Positions 1,381-29,237 of a stretch of 64,000 nucleotides of DNA are shown one piece after another. Origin of the DNA: Thermodesulfobacteriota bacterium (GTDB lineage Bacteria > Desulfobacterota_D > UBA1144 > Nemesobacterales > JAJCZQ01); assembly GCA_965215275.1 (NCBI GenBank), contig OZ244044.1, forward strand, positions 1,093,561 through 1,157,560. Reading direction: 5' to 3'. The position numbers and the translations under genes were made by a program. The notes under the pieces were generated by a model. That model saw nothing but the letters and a program-made list of their open reading frames with translations. It did no database searches and had not been told where the DNA came from. Positions within the stretch are counted from its first letter, which is position 1. Every line of letters starts with the position of its first letter.

Positions 1381-2941
1381 GGGAATTATATACTCTGTTA
1401 GACAAAGACAGGCAAATAGCTTTGATAGTGCTGTAAAATTAGGGAATTATATATAGATATGGATAGTGAAGGAAGTGTGATCAGAAAGACGAGAGTAGAC
1501 CTCAGGGCGGTTAAGTTGGATCCGTCTGCTCATAAGAAACTGGAATCTATGTTAAACCAGCTTACCTATCTTTATAACCGAGCTCGTGAAGAAAGGATAA
1601 GATCATATGATAAATATGAGAAACTGATGAAATGGGGTTTATCAGAAAAGAGATTTAAGACGTATTTCTATCCCCACTGGAAGTCTGGACTTTCTTATAA
1701 TAAAGGTAATACAGTTAAACATATAGACAAGGTATATATAGCTCTTAACAGGGTTAGAAGTGAAGTCCGACCTTGTAACGACCCGTTAAACTGGAGAGAG
1801 TTATCAGAAAAAGAAATAGGAAAGAAGTCGATCAGTTACGAAGATCAGGCAAGATCACTGACGGAAATAAGGAACGACCTTTTACTGTCTGATGAGTTTA
1901 GTAAGGTTGACGCTCAAGCGCAACAGCGGACGTTACAAAGACTGGATAAGGCTTATAAAGAATATCTAAAAGGGATACGTGGTCGTCCGAGATATAAGAA
2001 CAGTAGCAGAAAGATAAAAAGTTTTGAAACTTACCAATGGAGTAGAGTTAAGAAACAAGACAGAAGAACTTCCTTGTCCGTAAAAGGAGCAGGCAGGATG
2101 AGTTTCAAAGGCAGGATACCGGAAGGAACTAAATACATAAGGATAGTAAGAACTGCTTTAAGAGTAGAGATACAGTTTGTATATGAAACAGTTGCAGGAG
2201 TGGACAGAGGGTCAGACAGACCGATAGGGATAGATCTCGGAGTGAAGAACAGAATTACCTTATCGGATGGAACTTTCTATAAAGGAACAGAAATAGACAG
2301 GAAGGAACTTAAAAGAAAGCAAAGAGCATTAAGCAGAGCTGAAAAAGGATCTAACAACAGAAACAAGAAGAAAACAGCTTATGCCAAAGAACGTGCAAGG
2401 ACCACTGAAAGGGAACATAATAAAATACATGAATTAACTACAGGGATAGTAAAGGGTCATGGTAATCATTTTATAGTAGAAGATCTGAAGTTAAAGAACA
2501 TGACAAAGTCCGCTAAGGGGACATTGAAAGATCCTGGCAAGAAAGTAAAGCAGAAATCGGGATTGAACAGGTCTATACAGGAGCAGCAATTGGGAAAGGT
2601 CATTAGTCAGCTTACTTACAAGGTTGAGAGCACTGGAGGTAAGATAACTAAAGTTCCATCCCAATACACAAGCCAGACCTGTTCTGCATGCGGATACGTA
2701 GCTAAAAATAACAGAAAAGGAGAGTTATTTAAGTGCATGTCCTGTGGTTATACAGGCCATGCTGACTTAAACGCAGCTAATAACGTTCTCAAAAGAGGTT
2801 TATTCTTTTTGTCGGGTGGGAATAAGGACGAGAGTCTCCCGATGCAAGCTGGGAACATGATATCAAAAGAGAACGGGGTCAGAGGGACTCTGCTTGCAGA
2901 ACAGTATATTTAGTATTTGTATAATAGAGTATATAATTCCC
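1381..2941 (+). mobile_element. TnpB-carrying insertion element bounded by 27-28 bp imperfect terminal inverted repeats (gggaattatatactct...)
   Basis: Left end 1381-1408 is gggaattatatactctgttagacaaaga. The reverse complement of 2914-2941 is gggaattatatactctattatacaaata. They match at 25/28 positions, and the first 16 nt are identical. Confidence 0.7.
1459..2913 (+). CDS. tnpB: TnpB (IS605 OrfB / IS1341-type RNA-guided nuclease-like transposon protein) with a C-terminal Zn-finger
   Basis: 484 aa. Central RuvC-like region GIDLGVKN and C-terminal CSACGY...CMSCGY Zn-ribbon, typical of the OrfB_IS605 / OrfB_Zn_ribbon family. Confidence 0.85.
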   Translation: MDSEGSVIRKTRVDLRAVKLDPSAHKKLESMLNQLTYLYNRAREERIRSYDKYEKLMKWGLSEKRFKTYFYPHWKSGLSYNKGNTVKHIDKVYIALNRVRSEVRPCNDPLNWRELSEKEIGKKSISYEDQARSLTEIRNDLLLSDEFSKVDAQAQQRTLQRLDKAYKEYLKGIRGRPRYKNSSRKIKSFETYQWSRVKKQDRRTSLSVKGAGRMSFKGRIPEGTKYIRIVRTALRVEIQFVYETVAGVDRGSDRPIGIDLGVKNRITLSDGTFYKGTEIDRKELKRKQRALSRAEKGSNNRNKKKTAYAKERARTTEREHNKIHELTTGIVKGHGNHFIVEDLKLKNMTKSAKGTLKDPGKKVKQKSGLNRSIQEQQLGKVISQLTYKVESTGGKITKVPSQYTSQTCSACGYVAKNNRKGELFKCMSCGYTGHADLNAANNVLKRGLFFLSGGNKDESLPMQAGNMISKENGVRGTLLAEQYI

Positions 2942-4665: not shown

Positions 4666-4823
4666 AATATATAAAAGCAGATAAACAGTGTTCAGTCAGC
4701 ACAAGCCGAATTATTTAATTTGGGAATTATATACAATAGTGACGAAGCCTCCAATAAATAGTTGACAAACTATAGATTTGTCATTATTACAGGTAAGAAA
4801 ATTAAATAACTGGAGGAAGTTAT

Positions 4824-5765
4824 ATGTCAAAGAAAGCACCTGGGAAATCATACAGGAAAGGGATATCGTTAGTAAAGTTATTCAGGAAATTCCCTTCTGA
4901 TGCTGTTGCAGAGGAATGGTTTGTAAAACAGAGGTGGGGAAAGGAACCCGTATGTCCGTATTGCGGGACAAGAAACGTTCAGACCGGGACTGGTCATAAG
5001 ACAATGCCGTACAGGTACAGGGAAAAAGGACGTTCGAAATGGTTCAGTGCAAGGAGCAGGACAGTTATGCAGTCTTCTAATATCAGGTATCAGGCTTGGG
5101 CAGTGGCAATATATCTTTTTGCCACGTCATTAAAGGGAGTATCAAGTATGAAACTGCATAGAGATCTGGATATTACGCATAGGTCAGCATGGCATTTATC
5201 GCATCGTATCAGAGAGGCGTGGAACAGAGAAGAACTGCAAGTGTTTACAGGCTCCGTGGAGGCAGATGAGACGTTTACAGGTGGAAAGGAGAGAAACAAG
5301 CATAACAACAGGCGTAGTCATACACGAGGACCTGGAGGGAAGTCCATTGTTGCAGGAATGAAGAACAGAGAGACAAACAGGGTAACAGCACAACCGGTTT
5401 CTGAACGTAGTAAAGAGGAAATACAGGGTTTTACAGTTAAGAACGCAGGTAGTGGAGTAAAAACATATACCGATGATCATAAAAGCTATACAGGGTTGCC
5501 TTATGAGCATGAGAGCGTGGATCATAGTGTAAGGGAGTACGTTAAAGAGCAGGCACATGTAAACGGAGTGGGATCGTTCCGGGCAATGTTAAAAAGAGGA
5601 TATACCGGCACGTACCACAGAATGAGTAAAAAGCATTTAAATCGTTATGTAAATGAGTTTTCGGGGAGGCATAATATAAGAAGACTGGACACGGAAGATC
5701 AGATGGGAACAACAGCAAGGGCAATGTATGGAAAGACCTTGCCTTATAAAGAACTGATAAGGTAA
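4824..5765 (+). CDS. ISXO2-like / IS1595-family DDE transposase
   Basis: 313 aa with an N-terminal Zn-finger (CPYCGT) and an ADETFTGGKERNKH motif, characteristic of ISXO2-like transposases. Confidence 0.85.
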   Translation: MSKKAPGKSYRKGISLVKLFRKFPSDAVAEEWFVKQRWGKEPVCPYCGTRNVQTGTGHKTMPYRYREKGRSKWFSARSRTVMQSSNIRYQAWAVAIYLFATSLKGVSSMKLHRDLDITHRSAWHLSHRIREAWNREELQVFTGSVEADETFTGGKERNKHNNRRSHTRGPGGKSIVAGMKNRETNRVTAQPVSERSKEEIQGFTVKNAGSGVKTYTDDHKSYTGLPYEHESVDHSVREYVKEQAHVNGVGSFRAMLKRGYTGTYHRMSKKHLNRYVNEFSGRHNIRRLDTEDQMGTTARAMYGKTLPYKELIR

Positions 5766-5817
5766 TATGAATAATGTTACAGGATAAAAAACAGACCAAA
5801 AAACAAAGAAACTTGCA

Positions 5818-6006
5818 ATGACGAACAGGAAAAAAACAATAGAGATCTTGCCAGGCAGTTATGAACCGACAGAAGAAGAGAAAGAGCATCCGTTTTCTAT
5901 TGATACAACTCCGCAAAAGTCAGCAAAAGCTATCCTCCAGCCTGTCAACGTTAAAAAGAAGGATGTAAAGAAACACGTTGCTGAACGTTCAAAAAACAGG
6001 AAATGA
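5818..6006 (+). CDS. small Lys/Glu-rich passenger ORF inside the IS1595 element (hypothetical)
   Basis: 62-aa ORF between the transposase stop and IRR. No recognisable domain. Confidence 0.25.
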   Translation: MTNRKKTIEILPGSYEPTEEEKEHPFSIDTTPQKSAKAILQPVNVKKKDVKKHVAERSKNRK

Positions 6007-6103
6007 TCCAGGTTTCGTCACTATTGTATATAATTCCCATTTAATTTAACTGTCTCAAATACTTTTATTTTTGATATAACTTACTGAAATAATTTAGTTT
6101 TTA

Positions 6104-6625
6104 TTGACAAAATGGTTATTATATAATATACTTTTATACATACTAATAATGAAACTTTTTAACAGACTGAATAAAAAAGTCACTAAGTTTTTGTCAAAAA
6201 AAGTCCTATTCAAAAGGTTTATCTCTAAAAAAAGAGATAAAAAAGACATATGTCAATTAATCCCTAATATAATAAATGCTGATAATAATTGCGCTCTTAT
6301 TGCACTTCATCTTTTGTTTCCAAAAATTCCGGAAGATAAAATATTAGACGCATTTTACCATTGTTGCGAAAAGTGGCCAAATGAGGGAGTTACAAACAAA
6401 GAGTTTAATATTGCTCTTAAATTTTTAAACCTGGACAAAAAAGTTTGTTATCACGGAAATGAAACAATTGTTCAATTACTATTAGCACATAAAGATAGAG
6501 CTTTTATAAGTTTAGTACACGGACACTTTTTGGTTATTTCGTTCGGTAGAATTTTAGAGTTTTTCAGTTGTTATTGGACTAACTGTAAAGAAGCAAAAGT
6601 CTATTGTTATTGGGAAAAACTTTAG
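6104..6625 (+). CDS. hypothetical protein; predicted papain-fold Cys peptidase (deubiquitinase-like Cys-box and His-box)
   Basis: 173 aa. NNCALIALHLL resembles a USP/papain Cys-box. HGHFLVISF resembles the USP His-box GHY. Lies in an AT-rich islet. Assignment by eye only. Confidence 0.35.
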   Translation: MTKWLLYNILLYILIMKLFNRLNKKVTKFLSKKVLFKRFISKKRDKKDICQLIPNIINADNNCALIALHLLFPKIPEDKILDAFYHCCEKWPNEGVTNKEFNIALKFLNLDKKVCYHGNETIVQLLLAHKDRAFISLVHGHFLVISFGRILEFFSCYWTNCKEAKVYCYWEKL

Positions 6626-7287
6626 CAAGGGGCATAGTTTCTGTATTTTTTATGACATTTGCGAAACTCTTTAGACTCTGGATTTTGCAAATGATGTAAC
6701 AGCATCATAAATCCAACTGAAGTTGCCTCCATTATTATTGCTGTATATGAACCGTAATCGCCATAACCATCATCGCCGGCGTTTTCTAAACTTAGAGGCT
6801 TTGGGTTCCAAAAGCAGGTATATTCTGAAAAGTGTTTTTTGATACCAACACCAATAGAAAGCGTTTTAATGATTTCTCCTGCTCTGCCAACTTCATTGCA
6901 CAACTCGCCACAAGTAATACGAGCATCATTGGTATCTGGAACATTAATAACAATCTGAGAATCACTTACAGTATCCCTCGCCTTTATAGCTTCTGAAGGA
7001 ATGTCTGGAGTGTGTCTTTTCAGATGATGGGGTATGATCTTGATTTCAATTTCTGAGTTAATAAGGTTTGTTAATTTATCTTTTAAAACATAAACTTTAT
7101 ATTTACCAATATCAGTCCGTATGAAATTTCCTCTGTTTAGGTTGCTTATATCAACTTTATCCCCATCTATAAGAGCTAAATGTTTAGCCCCAGTCCTTAC
7201 TAACATTTCAGCAAATACACTTCCAACGGCACCGCAACCAACAATACAAAATTTGGGAACTATATAGGAAAGTTGACAAAATCCCAT
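6622..7287 (-). CDS. ThiF/MoeB/E1-like adenylyltransferase (minimal E1)
   Basis: 221 aa. Rossmann motif VGCGAVGS followed by DGDKVDISNLNRG, matching the E1 hallmark DxDxVxxSNLNRQ. No adjacent thiS/moaD. Confidence 0.7.
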   Translation of the reverse strand: MGFCQLSYIVPKFCIVGCGAVGSVFAEMLVRTGAKHLALIDGDKVDISNLNRGNFIRTDIGKYKVYVLKDKLTNLINSEIEIKIIPHHLKRHTPDIPSEAIKARDTVSDSQIVINVPDTNDARITCGELCNEVGRAGEIIKTLSIGVGIKKHFSEYTCFWNPKPLSLENAGDDGYGDYGSYTAIIMEATSVGFMMLLHHLQNPESKEFRKCHKKYRNYAPC

Positions 7288-7295
7288 AACTCCCT

Positions 7296-7481
7296 TTAAT
7301 CATTAACTTCTTTTATAAGAGGATTTCCTTTAGGATCTACTACTAATTTAAACCTTTTTTTCAGTTCTTCTTTGGTTGGTTTTTTAGGTCGTTTATGCGG
7401 GATCGAACCCATTTTTAACAACATCTTTGATGCTTTATCTATTGCTTGTTCTTTTTCTTTTTTTGCTTTTAATCTTTTCAT
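7296..7481 (-). CDS. small basic protein (61 aa, Lys-rich), hypothetical
   Basis: ORF immediately upstream of the E1-like gene on the same strand. Highly basic. No GG terminus. Confidence 0.3.
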   Translation of the reverse strand: MKRLKAKKEKEQAIDKASKMLLKMGSIPHKRPKKPTKEELKKRFKLVVDPKGNPLIKEVND

Positions 7482-7535
7482 TATAAAACAAATAACTATT
7501 AAATATGATCAAGACTCCTCCATCATATGTCATCA

Positions 7536-8481
7536 TTACTGTGTTAACTCTTCAAAGGTTATAGTTTTTCCTGCCATATTTCTAAAAAGTGCATCCAGTT
7601 GATCTTGCGTGTCTGTTTTTACATTACCTTCATTTAACCTGAACGAAAACTCATCTATATATTTCTTAAGATGTTTTTTATTCCAATTGTGATATACACC
7701 TTTGTATCCACCCTTTAATACTGCCCAGACACTTTCAACCCCGTTTGTAGAAGCCATCGTATTTACAAACTCTTTTGCCCAATGATCGACCGTCTTATGC
7801 TCAAATTCTCTATCTGATAAACCTCTGTATCCTCTATGCTCATCTGTGTATATAATGGAACCTTCTGCAATGTTCTCTTTTATCTCTCTTGAAAGAGTTT
7901 CACTCTCTCTGTTCCGGATCACTTTTGCTCTGGTTCTGCCTCCCTTCTCCCTCATACCTGATATACAGACCTTTCCTGCAACTCCTCTGCCTTTATTTCG
8001 TTTCTTGCTCCCGTGCTTGTTCTTCTCAAGTCCACCTATGTATGTCTCGTCTATCTCTACTTCTCCTTTCAATAATACTTCCATATTACTTCCACAAGCA
8101 AGTCGCAACCTATGCAGCATATACCAGGCTGTTGTCTGGGTTACTTCTAACTCCTTGCTCAACTGTAAACTGCTTATTCCCTTTCGGGAAGTCATAAGCA
8201 AATATCCTGCAAATATCCACTTCCGCATACTCAAGTGGAGTGCCTGTTAAAGCAGTAAAATAACTCCGGCATTCCTTACACCAATACCTGCCATATGGTT
8301 TCTTCTGTCGTGTTATTTTCTTGCTGCTTCCACACTTTGTGCAGTTTATTTTCTTTCCCCAGCGTAATCCCTCAAAATACTTAATTACAGATTCTTTTGC
8401 AGGATACTTTTCCATTAACCCAAATAAACTGACCGTCTTCACATGTCTTTTTTTCATACAATAAATATGATCTTCTATCAT
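7536..8481 (-). pseudogene. IS1595-family (ISXO2-like) transposase disrupted by a frameshift; a second, divergent IS copy
   Basis: The N-terminal Zn-finger part (8110-8481) and the DDE part with GEVEIDETYIGGLEKNKH (7536-8234) sit in different frames and overlap at 8110-8234. Homologous to the intact 4824-5765 transposase. Confidence 0.75.
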
Positions 8482-8569
8482 CTCTTGTCAACTCTTGTGT
8501 CAATATATCCCCTGTTTTGTCAACTTCCCTATATAGTTCCCTAAGAAAGGAAAGAGAAAGACGTTATAC

Positions 8570-8645: not shown

Positions 8646-8657
8646 CCCCCCCCCCCC
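8646..8657 (+). repeat. homopolymeric C12 tract in the 5' UTR of paralog 1
   Basis: 12 consecutive C at 8646-8657. Paralog 2 has C11 at the equivalent site. Confidence 0.9.
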
Positions 8658-11700: not shown

Positions 11701-12483
11701 GACACGGATGAAATTGAGTTCGGTATCACCGTGTCGGAGGACACAATGCCGACCTTCGACGGTGAGACGATAGAAGACAAGGTGACCGTTAACGGCGTTA
11801 CAGAAGTAATGGAAACGCTGCCTCTTGCAACAGGAGGGAACGGAACGCTGACTTACAGTTTAACTGATGCCGGTTCAAATGCTTTGAATTTATTTGCCGG
11901 ACTGGACTGGGATGACAACACCCGGGTGCTGAGCGGAACACCCAATATCGGTTCAGCGCTGCTTCATCTGCTTCCTCGAACCGAGACTTACACGTGGACG
12001 GTAACGGACGAAGATGGAGATACAGCAGAGATAACGTTCAGTATAGTAATAGAAGAAGACAGCATGCCGGAATTCAGTGTGACGACGATAGAAGATCAGG
12101 TGTACAGGGGGAGATCAATAATGTTGCCGGTAGCAACGGGAGGGAATGCACCGTTAGTATACAGTATAACGCCTCCCTTACCTCCTGTATTGAGATTGAA
12201 CGAAAACACCGGGGTAATAAGCGGGACGTCCGTCCGTGCGTCATCTGCTGCTACTTACAGGTATACGGTAACGGACAGGGACGGAGACATGAAAGAGTTG
12301 ACCTTCAGGTTCAGTGCAGCGGCTCCGCCACCGACAAGTAGTAATTCAGGCGGAGGTGGAGGATGTGCTGTATCAGATCAGAGCATCGCCATTTTTGATA
12401 TTCTCGGAGTAATGGCATGTCTGATACTTATACCCGTGTCTGTAATTATCAGAAGGAAAAGAAGATCTCAGATAAAGACTTAG
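8704..12483 (+). CDS. large secreted kexin/subtilisin-like (S8) domain protein. Includes a P-domain, about 7-8 He_PIG (putative Ig / cadherin-like) repeats, and a C-terminal Gly-run/Cys–TM–basic sorting signal. Catalytic triad apparently substituted (pseudoprotease).
   Basis: 1259 aa. Signal peptide MFKIIPPPSKLLLTLVFILLSIMVIAAKG. Subtilase motifs are degenerate: VAVVSNGID (Asp→Ser), SGTRAAG (aligned with HGTRCAG of furin, His→Ser), TSGTVLS (aligned with GTS, Ser→Val). P-domain-like ITSPSGTVSEL...GEWTLKIYN. Repeats LPxATGGNGTLTY...LPxGLxFDxxTRVLSGTPT...TYTVTDxDGDTAE. C-terminus GGGGGCAVS...LILIPVSVII-RRKRRSQIKT. Confidence 0.8.
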   Translation: MFKIIPPPSKLLLTLVFILLSIMVIAAKGQSSLEETLSECRDISAGLEDPLYGCQWHLNNTGQLSISGKRITAGEDINAEGVWNEEVYGTGINVAVVSNGIDLSHEDLSAKVRSELNYNFSGKDNSDSSELSGTRAAGVTAAAGYNGLGTRGVAPGASIYSNKLTGDLRESDAMEAGEAMVRNKEITAVSVSDRGSEDGVFLQGASAEWEEGVEEGIREGFYGRGIFYVLGAGDGHESGDQANFSEYSNYYGVTAVCSTDGSGKKSLFSEEGVNLWVCAPGPDIATTDSDDDHAVTSGTVLSVSRVAGVAALLREVNEDLSWRDIKLILAGSARQNDVPDISWETGAVKYGSDVERYRYSSKYGFGVVDAEAAAELAGSWKGVGEMRTVTASSDNELTIPDGEGEADGVLTSRLMISDLEEIFTEFVEVELVLSCDCLQDLNIRITSPSGTVSELVRESASEFVRGSSNEENDCVSYLGKKHRFGSARHLGEDPSGEWTLKIYNTASGDEEDTENTVTLHSWSIRVYGHGKEDTLTDFGGEITAKALTLGNVPGGRLTWTQHKLVNARLFEAAGGRPPYTYSLAPLPPGLNFNGTTRIINGRPTAAGDTDVQYTARDANNDTARSDFVIRITANAAPVFGSKTVAAQVYTARKAIEPLELPEATGGDGTLTYNISGNVRGIGLNFNRNTRILSGMPTSVTPGITAVYTATDADGDTAELRFNIRVRHQNDIPTFGSQMVDDQNWVNGSAVRLTLPRARNGNGTLTYGITPALPDGLDFDPGTRVLSGTPTAAAPENTYTYTVTDSDNDIHESDSDSLTFRIRIKAATEVPSFGSQTVGNKIYTAGVQISPFTLPLATQGTGITLRLTPRLPSGLNFNHATGEISGIPTTATSETDYTWRATDRDGYTAEITFSITIRAADTEPTFGGETTDDQEYVAGSQITPVTLPVATGGNAPLAYGITPDLPAGLDFDENARVLSGTPTTATSKNTYTYTVTDEDGDTDEIEFGITVSEDTMPTFDGETIEDKVTVNGVTEVMETLPLATGGNGTLTYSLTDAGSNALNLFAGLDWDDNTRVLSGTPNIGSALLHLLPRTETYTWTVTDEDGDTAEITFSIVIEEDSMPEFSVTTIEDQVYRGRSIMLPVATGGNAPLVYSITPPLPPVLRLNENTGVISGTSVRASSAATYRYTVTDRDGDMKELTFRFSAAAPPPTSSNSGGGGGCAVSDQSIAIFDILGVMACLILIPVSVIIRRKRRSQIKT
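8718..8726 (+). repeat. homopolymeric C9 tract inside codons 5-8 (PPP) of paralog 1
   Basis: ATG TTT AAG ATA ATC CCC CCC CCA; the downstream frame is in-phase (ON). Confidence 0.9.
10330..12300 (+). repeat. array of about 95-aa He_PIG/cadherin-like tandem protein repeats within paralog 1
   Basis: Recurrent motif LP(V/L)ATGGN(G/A)(T/P)LTYxITPxLPxGLxFDxxTRVLSGTPT...YTYTVTDxDGDTxE seen at least 7 times. Confidence 0.7.
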
Positions 12484-12994
12484 TAATGAGGTCCTTTCAA
12501 AGGTATTGAACTAACCAAGATATTTCCCATCAGAATATTTGCTGGTTGCTTACGGGAGAAGAAGTGGTATCTCCATAGTTAAAGTCCTCTTTTTCTTTTG
12601 ATCTTCAATGTTCTTATTACCACAAGGTTTTCCACCCGATACAAATATGATACTGTTAAAAACGTCTTTTTTATTCATTTGGCGGAGTTAGCTATATAAT
12701 TTCCTAAATAATGTTTACTGTAAGCTATTCAAGGCAGAAATCAGTCCACAAATTACAGTTCCAATTATAAACACGCCTAGCCGGAGTGGAAAATCTTAAA
12801 CAAATTGTGGAAAAAACATGTTGTAATAGTTTGCAAAGTGATAGATTCATCACCTTCTCAACCCCTACATCAAAAACCAAAAACACAATAAAGGTCACTT
12901 ATAGGAACGAACCTGTTTTTGACATATACCTGATGATCTTCCTGAAACTAAAAACTTAAATCCTGATATAAACCATCAAGGTCCATTACAACTC

Positions 12995-28800: not shown

Positions 28801-29237
28801 TCAGTGTAGAGGTTACTTCTACTCCAGGACCAACACCACCACGAGGACCAAGAACGTCAGGTACTGATTCAGGCGGAGGTGGAGGAGGATGTGCTGTATC
28901 AGAGCAGAGCAGCGTTGATGAAGATATTCTCGGAGTAATGACATGTCTGATACTTATACCTGTGTCAGTAACGATAAGAAGAAAGAGAAGAGCTCAGGTA
29001 AAGACTTAGCAATGCACTTCTTTCAAAGGTATTTCTGAGAGAATTGGAGTCTGGTTTTCTTTTATAAGTTCGTTGAGGAGAACGGGTGTATTACCGTGTA
29101 TTGAGCTATAGTATGTAATTCCCTTTATATAACTGTCAGTTATATAAGTTATTTAATTTTTCTTATGTCTGGTTATCAAGATAATTCCGAAGCTATCTAT
29201 ACAGATTTGCAGGACAGAAAAACTTATTACTTGGCTG

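Follow-up and report, generated by a model that had tools for sequence, protein, structure and literature searches.

Which function, if any, is served by a ThiF-type activating enzyme (E1) gene and a convergent gene for a small Cys/His protein between two insertion sequences (ISs) was asked for a 64,000-nucleotide stretch of contig OZ244044.1 (assembly GCA_965215275.1, positions 1,093,561 to 1,157,560) from a Thermodesulfobacteriota bacterium. This whole stretch is referred to as the window, and positions are counted from its first base. In the preliminary description, the locus was suggested to be a stripped-down or novel three-protein variant of the ubiquitin-like conjugation modules of antiphage defense, comprising the E1, a predicted deubiquitinase-like Cys peptidase, and a 61-aa Lys-rich protein and delivered by IS activity. 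Comparison with related loci gave a different answer. Window positions 6147 to 7254 are probably the surviving half of a horizontally acquired four-gene cassette, the intact form of which resembles the bacterial ubiquitination-like (Bub) operons with a DUF1508 protein as the putative modifier. The module of this family has four parts, and the window has lost two of the genes and the N terminus of the E1.

About 30 full-length relatives of the E1 and 9 relatives of the convergent protein, designated Y, were found, and these frequently shared contigs. The neighborhoods of seven relatives all held the same cassette, in which a tandem-DUF1508 protein (~150 aa), a protein designated X (~135 aa), and the ThiF-type E1 (~235 aa) were followed by convergent Y, with gene boundaries overlapping by a few bases. 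Twenty-nine further loci from at least 10 phyla were located among species-representative genomes, and hidden Markov models built from the first seven cassettes detected all four genes in the same order in about 25 of them. No further conserved gene was found in the cassette. The hosts of the 29 loci were metagenome-assembled genomes (MAGs) of Thermodesulfobacteriota, Bdellovibrionales, Bacteroidota, Arenicellales, Pseudomonadales, Binatia, a Bathymodiolus symbiont, Alphaproteobacteria, Acidobacteriota, Latescibacterota, Spirochaetia, and Gemmatimonadota. In 20 of 27 hosts, the AT content of the cassette exceeded that of its flanks. The DUF1508 protein and X were encoded by one open reading frame (ORF) in six loci and were split elsewhere, and a profile search returned more than 65 clusters of DUF1508-X fusion proteins of ~270 aa, none of which was named. 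Viral contigs contained 48 ThiF-bearing loci, none with DUF1508, X, or Y, and a phage-borne origin was therefore rejected. The cassette was also absent from plasmids, where only distant ThiF proteins belonging to true Bub operons were detected. No description of the DUF1508-ThiF gene combination was found in the literature; DUF1508 and ubiquitin appeared together only in the paper on Bub ubiquitin-like proteins (Ubls) and in an unrelated phage genome paper.

Several copies of the cassette were interrupted or altered. IS66 and DDE_Tnp_1 elements were located between the E1 and Y genes at two loci (L011, 7793 to 10099; L014, 7900 to 11045), a 2.2-kb insert separated X from the E1 gene at another (L023, 4718 to 6982), and a split E1 gene (L037, 6087 to 6901) and a fragmented Y gene (L020, 7669 to 7955) were also observed. 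It seems that ISs frequently target the cassette or that inactivation of it is common. In a Spirochaetia MAG (L028, 5369 to 6580), the first gene encoded a 403-aa array of several DUF1508 repeats that still ended in PPGS.

In the window, DNA homology to the closest relative, L004, was confined exactly to positions 6147 to 7254 (blastn; L004 positions 583 to 1684 aligned to window positions 7254 to 6147 with 78.6% identity). This segment had a GC content of 0.329, compared to 0.443 for the remaining window, and lies within a wider depression (0.26 to 0.33 over about 5800 to 7600, versus 0.44 to 0.50 on either side). An AT-rich islet had been proposed at 6040 to 7530; the GC dip is real, but the homologous part is shorter, and the right edge falls at 7251, as the inverted repeat of the right IS begins at 7252. 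No DUF1508 or X gene was detected in the entire 64-kb window (tblastn). The window copy was interpreted as a relic because both of these genes and the first ~24 codons of the E1 gene are absent from the window.

The 221-aa ORF previously described as an E1/ThiF-family enzyme (6622 to 7287, minus strand) does encode a ThiF-family protein (Pfam ThiF, PF00899; E = 5.1e-24, over the 28.1-bit cutoff), but it is a hybrid that has lost the 5' end of the gene. Its first 11 codons (MGFCQLSYIVP) derive from the end of the right IS and aligned to nothing in the relatives. The Pfam profile was matched only from position 23, the alignment with relatives started at KFCIVGCG (base 7254), and tblastn matches of seven relatives began at window positions 7251 to 7260, corresponding to their residues 23 to 26. 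Family positions 7 to 23 are deleted and positions 1 to 6 are IS derived. Missing as a result is a conserved N-terminal helix (consensus R-T-x-x-A-L-G-x-x-L-I-x-K-I) that is kept by full-length relatives, with R8 in 19, T9 in 22, L13 in 23, and L17 in 22 of 27 family members. In ThiF and MoeB, the equivalent N-terminal segment supplies an Arg that contacts ATP. With this helix gone, the adenylation domain of the window E1 is not complete. Every invariant residue 3' of the break is retained (G30/G32/G35, N62-L63-N64-R65, K78, D131, R136, C171, W173, Y188, and S194), and the adenylyltransferase signature, consisting of the GxGxxG nucleotide loop, the NLNRQ-type Arg, and the Mg-binding Asp, is present.

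The E1 and Y genes are convergent, as previously described, with overlapping stop codons, and neither the E1 remainder nor Y contains a frameshift or an internal stop. The deletion was probably recent, since both are otherwise undecayed. The ATG of the hybrid E1 ORF lies 8 nt past the stop codon of the 61-aa ORF, with GGGAG just upstream (7285 to 7300, minus strand), so that transcripts reading through from the IS could allow expression of the truncated E1. Given the loss of the helix and of the two upstream partners, the window copy appears unable to perform the function of the cassette alone, and the window module is most likely inactive.

The presence of ISs on both sides of the islet, with a frameshift in the right one, agreed with the preliminary description, and IS1595-type transposases were identified in both. 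The right element abuts the E1 gene at codon ~24. Its transposase (Pfam DDE_Tnp_IS1595, 6.8e-44; Zn_ribbon_IS1595, 3.2e-07) is frameshifted (8481 to 8110 and 8234 to 7536), and its 30-nt terminal inverted repeats (7252 to 7281 and 8515 to 8544) are 93% complementary. No target-site duplication was found at its ends, which are bordered by two different sequences, ATACAAAA and GAAAGGAA. Together with the missing genes, this indicates an adjacent deletion associated with the IS, which is the simplest cause of the truncation. This IS was not found in a search of plasmids. The left element (Pfam DDE_Tnp_IS1595, 1.3e-30, and a Zn ribbon) likewise ends in 30-nt inverted repeats (4721 to 4750 and 6010 to 6039) that are 97% complementary and is bordered by the direct repeat TTTAATT (4714 to 4720 and 6040 to 6046), a target duplication of 7 to 8 bp. 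It inserted cleanly upstream of Y. With 41% identity between the transposases and 83% identity between the IS ends, the two are different elements. The target duplication of the left element argues against movement of the locus as one composite unit. The islet was thus damaged by IS activity rather than delivered by it.

A 61-aa Lys-rich ORF does lie just upstream of the E1, as previously noted, but it is located within the inverted repeats of the right IS and is therefore not part of the islet. It is IS cargo. No counterpart was present in any related cassette locus, and the ORF was nowhere called as a gene in the sequence collection searched. A 62-aa ORF holds the mirror position in the left IS; homology between the two was not demonstrable (E = 0.028), and neither matched a Pfam, NCBIfam, or PADLOC family. 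The possibility that the 61-aa ORF is a remnant of X was considered and rejected, as no similarity was found.

The convergent protein, Y, had been described as a 173-aa protein with a papain- or ubiquitin-specific protease (USP)-like Cys box and His box. The two motifs correspond to the two best-conserved positions of the family (Cys48 and His126, each at least 90% conserved), but the protein is 158 aa long, the length at which database relatives were called. What had been taken for a TTG start (6104) belongs to the -35 hexamer of a promoter close to consensus, which ends 17 nt upstream of the ATG at 6149. Y consists of a basic N-terminal helix followed by a core that contains Cys48 and His126. 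The family is small and standalone, with only 72 representatives among 1.84 billion proteins. Both Cys48 and His126 were present in 46 of 49 diverse members, and the other three contained neither; an Asp, Glu, or Asn was found 11 residues past the His in 35 members, and 37 had a basic or hydrophobic N-terminal extension, five of which were transmembrane-like. In an AlphaFold2 (AF2) model with a core predicted local distance difference test score (pLDDT) of about 90, C48 opens a helix (residues 48 to 56) and H126 opens a strand (residues 126 to 131). No Pfam, NCBIfam, or PADLOC family was matched, the Y profile returned 0 hits among PDB sequences, and no member matched PF20137/DUF6527. For the proposed papain/USP fold, no significant match was obtained; staphopain, a C39-like domain, and USPs were among the top Foldseek hits of the model, all at nonsignificant levels. 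The conserved, covarying Cys-His pair is as expected of a thiol peptidase, and Y was annotated as a putative thiol peptidase, for which a transferase role is also possible.

The first gene of the intact cassette encodes two DUF1508 repeats (PF07411; Pfam, 4.6e-14) and a tail of ~28 aa with the consensus W-x-N/P-P-E/D-x-D-P-A-x-x-x-K-x-x-D-x-T-E/P-x-x-G-x-P-G-S. The final G-S is invariant; it is at or a few residues from the C terminus in most split forms, and in fused forms it occupies the junction with X. An AF2 model of a natural DUF1508-X fusion (pLDDT, 81.6) contained two DUF1508 units, one strand, one short helix, and the disordered tail, with G-x-P-G-S as the only disordered segment (pLDDT, 41), and no beta-grasp was present in this model. 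Tandem DUF1508 domains have been proposed in the literature to be sPC4/Whirly-like binders of single-strand nucleic acid, and an N-terminal tandem DUF1508 is carried by some true Bub Ubls.

Tyr, Pro, Ser, Trp, and Phe residues are invariant in X, whereas no Cys, His, or Lys is conserved, and the protein had no match in Pfam, NCBIfam, or PADLOC. Its topology in the model is alpha-beta4-beta2-alpha. The DUF1508-X profile matched only UPF0339 proteins among PDB sequences. In a Foldseek search of the fusion model, YegP structures ranked at the top (2k8e, with a template modeling [TM] score of 0.66, and 2k49), and the best non-YegP match was chain 9eae_C of the entry 9EAE, "Citrobacter BubCD-BubB" (probability, 1.00; TM, 0.58; E = 0.03; aligned half of the fusion model not specified). 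This chain was inferred to be BubB, the conjugating enzyme (E2), because the complex in the corresponding paper consists of two BubCD protomers and one BubB. A CBASS (cyclic oligonucleotide-based antiphage signaling system) E2 was found at rank 38 of the same list. X was also compared by hhalign to profiles of 2 and then 11 BubB sequences, with DUF1508, Y, and the E1 as controls, and neither profile gave a significant result or one better than the controls; in the colinear alignment with the 11-sequence profile, which was nonsignificant (P = 0.46), the invariant Ser of X was set on the catalytic Ser of BubB.

The neighborhoods of the relatives were consistent with a mobile, defense-associated module. 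The E1 relatives lay in a conserved cassette, in defense islands, integrative and conjugative elements, and restriction-modification (RM) operons, often beside regulators of the CapH/CapP type. A complete cassette was located inside a type I RM operon of a Pseudomonadales MAG, between hsdR and hsdS/hsdM (L008/L015; OY843767.1, 5116 to 7175); a Schlafen/AlbA_2-HATPase gene was observed alongside this cassette. Other cassettes adjoined AbiEii, Zeta toxin, DUF3800, CTD10, and MC6 domains (L007); AbiTii, HEPN-Toprim, and a BsobI RM system (L002); an Eco57I methylase and an ABC/AAA ATPase (L003); or TraC/TraG conjugation genes (L005 and L035). Directly upstream of the cassettes of L002, L005/L006, L011, L014, and L017, a divergent HTH_3 and Peptidase_M78 pair or fusion was found, which is a DNA damage regulator of the CapH/CapP type. 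This association with regulators and defense loci was seen in relatives and not in the window itself, the surroundings of which (argB, TnpB, a TolC-like protein, a subtilase, and purH) are not a defense island. No ThiS, MoaD, ThiG, ThiH, or Moa gene was present in the ~30 neighborhoods, in line with the earlier remark that the E1 lacks a cofactor biosynthesis context; thiamine, molybdopterin, and microcin settings were not encountered.

The closest parallel to the intact cassette was found in Type I Bub, formerly known as "6E.1"/DUF6527 operons, which encode BubAB, BubCD, and BubE (Ye, Gong, Chambers, and Corbett; bioRxiv 10.1101/2024.11.21.623953). In these operons, the modifier consists of one to three beta-grasp (ubiquitin-like) domains with a conserved terminal Gly, an operon-encoded peptidase cuts the Ubl-E2 fusion after a conserved Gly, the E1 is a minimal ThiF/UBA5-like homodimer without a catalytic Cys, and an invariant catalytic Ser replaces the Cys of the E2 (bioRxiv 10.1101/2024.11.21.623953). 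BubE, a DUF6527 Ser-His protease with a hydrophobic extension, is found in all Bub operons; CapH and CapP accompany 31% of them, and the operons occupy mobile or defense loci, as described in the Bub papers.

By analogy with Type I Bub, the DUF1508 protein of the intact cassette would be the modifier, in place of a Ubl. DNA damage or phage infection would induce expression through the upstream pair of an HTH protein and an M78 peptidase (CapH/CapP type). Y would cleave at the invariant G-x-P-G-S, separating DUF1508 from X in fused forms and trimming the terminal Ser in split forms, and in both cases a Gly-containing tail would be exposed. The E1 would adenylate this tail and accept it on the invariant Cys171 or Tyr188 of the crossover region, and X, as an E2 of the ubiquitin-conjugating (UBC)-like type without Cys, would carry the tail on its invariant Ser (F-x-P-Y/F-S) to the target. 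The role of the cassette would probably be in antiphage defense or stress response, and the family may constitute an undescribed variant of the bacterial ubiquitination-like systems. It is a tentative further possibility that the family represents a fourth kind of bacterial ubiquitination-like pathway, with a non-beta-grasp modifier (a YegP/DUF1508 pseudo-dimer, possibly a single-strand nucleic acid binder, with a disordered G-x-P-G-S tail), a new family of Cys-His peptidases, a minimal E1, and a cysteine-less UBC-like E2. In that case, the chemistry of E1 and E2 enzymes would have been recruited for labeling targets with a fold other than that of ubiquitin.

The link to ubiquitin-like conjugation drawn in the preliminary description was retained in part, through the parallel with Bub, whereas the JAB peptidase, E1-E2 fusion, and beta-grasp Ubl of the systems named there were not found. 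Several observations weigh against the reading of the window as half of a Bub-like cassette. A modifier without a beta-grasp and with an invariant last residue of Ser rather than Gly would be unprecedented on both counts for an E1 substrate. The E1 profile was nearer to UBA6, UBA5, MccB, and TcdA (1e-22 to 1e-17) than to BubCD (4.5e-12). The structural match to BubB had an E value of only 0.03, with the aligned half of the fusion model unspecified, and the hhalign comparison of X to the 11-sequence BubB profile gave the same result as the negative controls. The mechanism and the role against phage are drawn from analogy, and according to the Bub papers, phage protection by Bub itself is yet to be demonstrated. 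The relic status was established from the 64-kb window, and partners acting in trans may be encoded elsewhere in the ~2-Mb genome.

Alternative explanations were weighed against the same evidence. An ordinary cofactor biosynthesis ThiF or MoeB beside an unrelated neighbor would account for the best NCBIfam hits, which were ThiF models (1.8e-20), but these scored 73.5 bits against a curated cutoff of 159 bits and every score was under the equivalog cutoffs; as the cofactor genes were missing from the neighborhoods and the family was patchy across phyla and AT skewed relative to its hosts, this explanation is refuted by context and retains practically no probability. The idea of a self-sufficient minimal module of the E1, the deubiquitinase-like peptidase, and the 61-aa basic protein, mobilized as a composite transposon, draws on three adjacent ORFs with intact reading frames, on the invariant residues left in the truncated E1, on a start codon and GGGAG placed such that coexpression with the 61-aa ORF could occur, and on the IS1595 elements on both sides. 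It is largely refuted and very improbable: the 61-aa ORF belongs to an IS and has no homologue in relatives, the E1 lacks its conserved helix, the two ISs differ in transposases and ends, and in about 30 relatives DUF1508 and X always accompanied the E1 and Y, except in visibly disrupted or short-contig copies. The uninterrupted frames of the E1 remainder and Y, the strong promoter-like site that Y retains, and the start codon and Shine-Dalgarno-like sequence supplied by the IS to the hybrid E1 would also fit a pair that is still functional, with DUF1508 and X encoded elsewhere in the genome or with a new role. Against such a pair, which is improbable, stand the conservation of the lost helix across the family, the lack of a partner gene within 64 kb, and the organization of cassettes elsewhere as single, tightly coupled operons.

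A further explanation concerns the chemistry of the intact cassette. The E1 may act in the manner of MccB, PaaA, or TcdA on the DUF1508 tail (by adenylation, cyclization, or formation of a peptidyl-nucleotide) or on nucleic acid, with Y as a maturation protease and X as an adaptor or immunity protein, and no protein would be conjugated. In its favor, the matches of the E1 profile to MccB (3e-19), TcdA (8e-18), and PaaA (5e-13) were at least as good as that to BubCD, and the modifier has a terminal Ser and no beta-grasp. Sequence similarity between X and E2s is lacking, and the proposed binding of single-strand nucleic acid by tandem DUF1508 would suit such a role. This explanation is nevertheless unlikely, since the E1 of ~235 aa has no peptide-clamp domain, the tail ends in G-S and not in Asn, Bub operons share the gene order, the fused or split first genes, the junction Gly, and the regulators with the cassette, and the fold of the fusion model matched BubB. 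The reading of the window as the remains of a Bub-like cassette was accordingly preferred. The same E1 profile matched Cap2 structures at 2e-11. A 265-aa protein annotated as a "THIF-type NAD/FAD binding fold domain-containing protein" (PDB 9EGB/9EGC/9EGD) was matched at 1e-17, better than ThiF, MoeB, or BubCD.

Table. Coordinates of the cassette remnant and flanking elements in the window
Feature	Positions	Strand	Basis or remarks
Cassette remnant, full extent (part homologous to intact cassettes elsewhere)	6147..7254	.	blastn versus L004, and GC content
5'-truncated ThiF-type E1 gene	6622..7254	-	Residues ~25 to 236 of the full-length family
IS-derived 5' end of the hybrid E1 ORF	7255..7287	-	ATG at 7285-7287; 11 codons through the IS inverted repeat
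Y, 158-aa Cys/His protein, putative thiol peptidase	6149..6625	+	Homologues P0036-P0044; gene looks intact
Promoter-like site for Y, TTGACA-17-TATACT	6104..6132	+	11 of 12 consensus matches
Left IS1595-family element	4721..6039	+	DDE_Tnp_IS1595 and Zn ribbon, inverted repeats
313-aa transposase of the left IS	4824..5765		Content of the left IS
62-aa ORF of the left IS	5818..6006		Content of the left IS
Right IS1595-family element	7252..8544	-	Pfam domains and inverted repeats
61-aa Lys-rich ORF	7296..7481	-	Within the right IS, with the transposase gene on one side and the inverted repeat on the other

Other features of the window were observed near the locus. A 484-aa TnpB-type RNA-guided endonuclease (1459 to 2913, plus strand; NCBIfam guided_TnpB, 4.6e-51) lies between argB and the TolC-like gene and brings the mobile elements within 8 kb to three. 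Twelve consecutive C residues (8646 to 8657) are located just outside the right IS and ~50 bp upstream of the start (8704) of a 1,259-aa subtilase/mycosin-like surface protein, where they could serve as a tract for slipped-strand phase variation. The 1,259-aa ORF and an 849-aa ORF have a common C-terminal tail (12411 to 12497 and 28937 to 29109), made up of a Gly-rich, Cys-containing stretch, a hydrophobic helix, and a cluster of basic residues (RRKRR), that also matched a gene adjoining the cassette in L004 (1912 to 2057). By its appearance, this tail is a sorting or anchor signal shared within the lineage.

The window locus can be regarded as a dead or dying relic that shows the erosion of acquired islands by IS1595 elements. 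The cassette family itself is compact and widely transferred and copies the logic of the Bub operon without the ubiquitin fold, JAB, or DUF6527. If the DUF1508 protein is conjugated, the substrate range of E1 enzymes would extend past beta-grasp proteins, and the long-uncharacterized YegP/DUF1508 family would gain a function. A possible explanation would also be provided for the 57 pairs of capK and capS DNA damage regulators that precede a yegP homologue, which were reported without further analysis (2026 paper, PMC13373217). At about 2 kb and three or four genes, the cassette could easily be tested.

Among known systems, the IS1595 family (with an ISXO2-like DDE transposase) accommodates both flanking elements, which share DDE_Tnp_IS1595, an N-terminal Zn ribbon, and terminal inverted repeats of ~30 nt; they differ from it in that each bears a small Lys-rich ORF (61 to 62 aa) downstream of the transposase and in the frameshift and missing target duplication of the right copy. 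The first cassette gene shares its two DUF1508 repeats with Escherichia coli YegP/UPF0339, and its model matched 2k8e, but it has an additional, highly conserved tail and is translationally coupled or fused to X. Y has in common with papain-like and C39-type cysteine peptidases a near-invariant Cys at a helix N terminus, a His with which a beta-strand begins, and frequently an acidic or Asn residue 11 positions later, whereas none of the peptidase families matched it significantly in sequence or fold. MccB and PaaA use an N-terminal peptide-clamp (RRE) domain. The cassette E1 differs from these enzymes in consisting of the adenylation domain only, and the MccB match covered only residues 111 to 206. 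The DUF1508 tail was also considered as an MccA-like precursor, a candidate that was rejected on account of its terminal Ser in place of Asn and the lack of a clamp domain in the E1.

Bil (bacterial ISG15-like) systems and type II CBASS Cap2/Cap3 resemble the cassette in their E1-type adenylation domain (PADLOC E1-E2 models, 1e-17 to 1e-19, of which the E1 matched only the Rossmann part), in their defense island context, and in an operon-encoded peptidase. The cassette differs from both in the absence of an E1-E2 fusion, a CD-NTase, a JAB peptidase, a beta-grasp Ubl, and the IAD-AAD-CYS architecture, and no JAB, CD-NTase, or Ubl family was detected in any cassette protein by family scans. This comparison is less apt than that with Bub.

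The cassette is not a member of Bub, because DUF6527, JAB, and a beta-grasp are all lacking. The modifier is a tandem DUF1508 protein with a tail ending in invariant G-S; one unrelated convergent Cys/His protein is encoded in place of a JAB/JAMM peptidase and the DUF6527 BubE; the E1 is standalone, with an invariant Cys and a Tyr after the Mg-binding Asp; and the S-x-H and Asp signature of Type I BubB is missing from X, which has no detectable sequence similarity to that protein. The window differs further in retaining only Y and the truncated E1. The plasmid Bub operons compared do carry an annotated DUF6527 gene; they have the same order of Ubl, E2, and ThiF genes and the same fused or split variation. 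Ubl and E2 were separate in three of the plasmid loci (L090, L093, and L096) and fused in others (L091, L094, L095, and L097 to L099), and the separate Ubl ended exactly in TEG. The likeness of the cassette to Type I Bub extends to the order of modifier, E2, and ThiF-type E1 with 4-bp overlaps; the first two genes, either fused or split; a conserved Gly in an exposed segment at the junction or C terminus; and a candidate peptidase of its own with a hydrophobic or basic terminal extension. It extends also to X, which is of E2 size, without a catalytic Cys, and with an invariant Ser ~29 residues from the C terminus; to a minimal E1 without an inserted Cys domain; and to the frequent CapH/CapP-type regulators and the location in mobile elements and defense islands.

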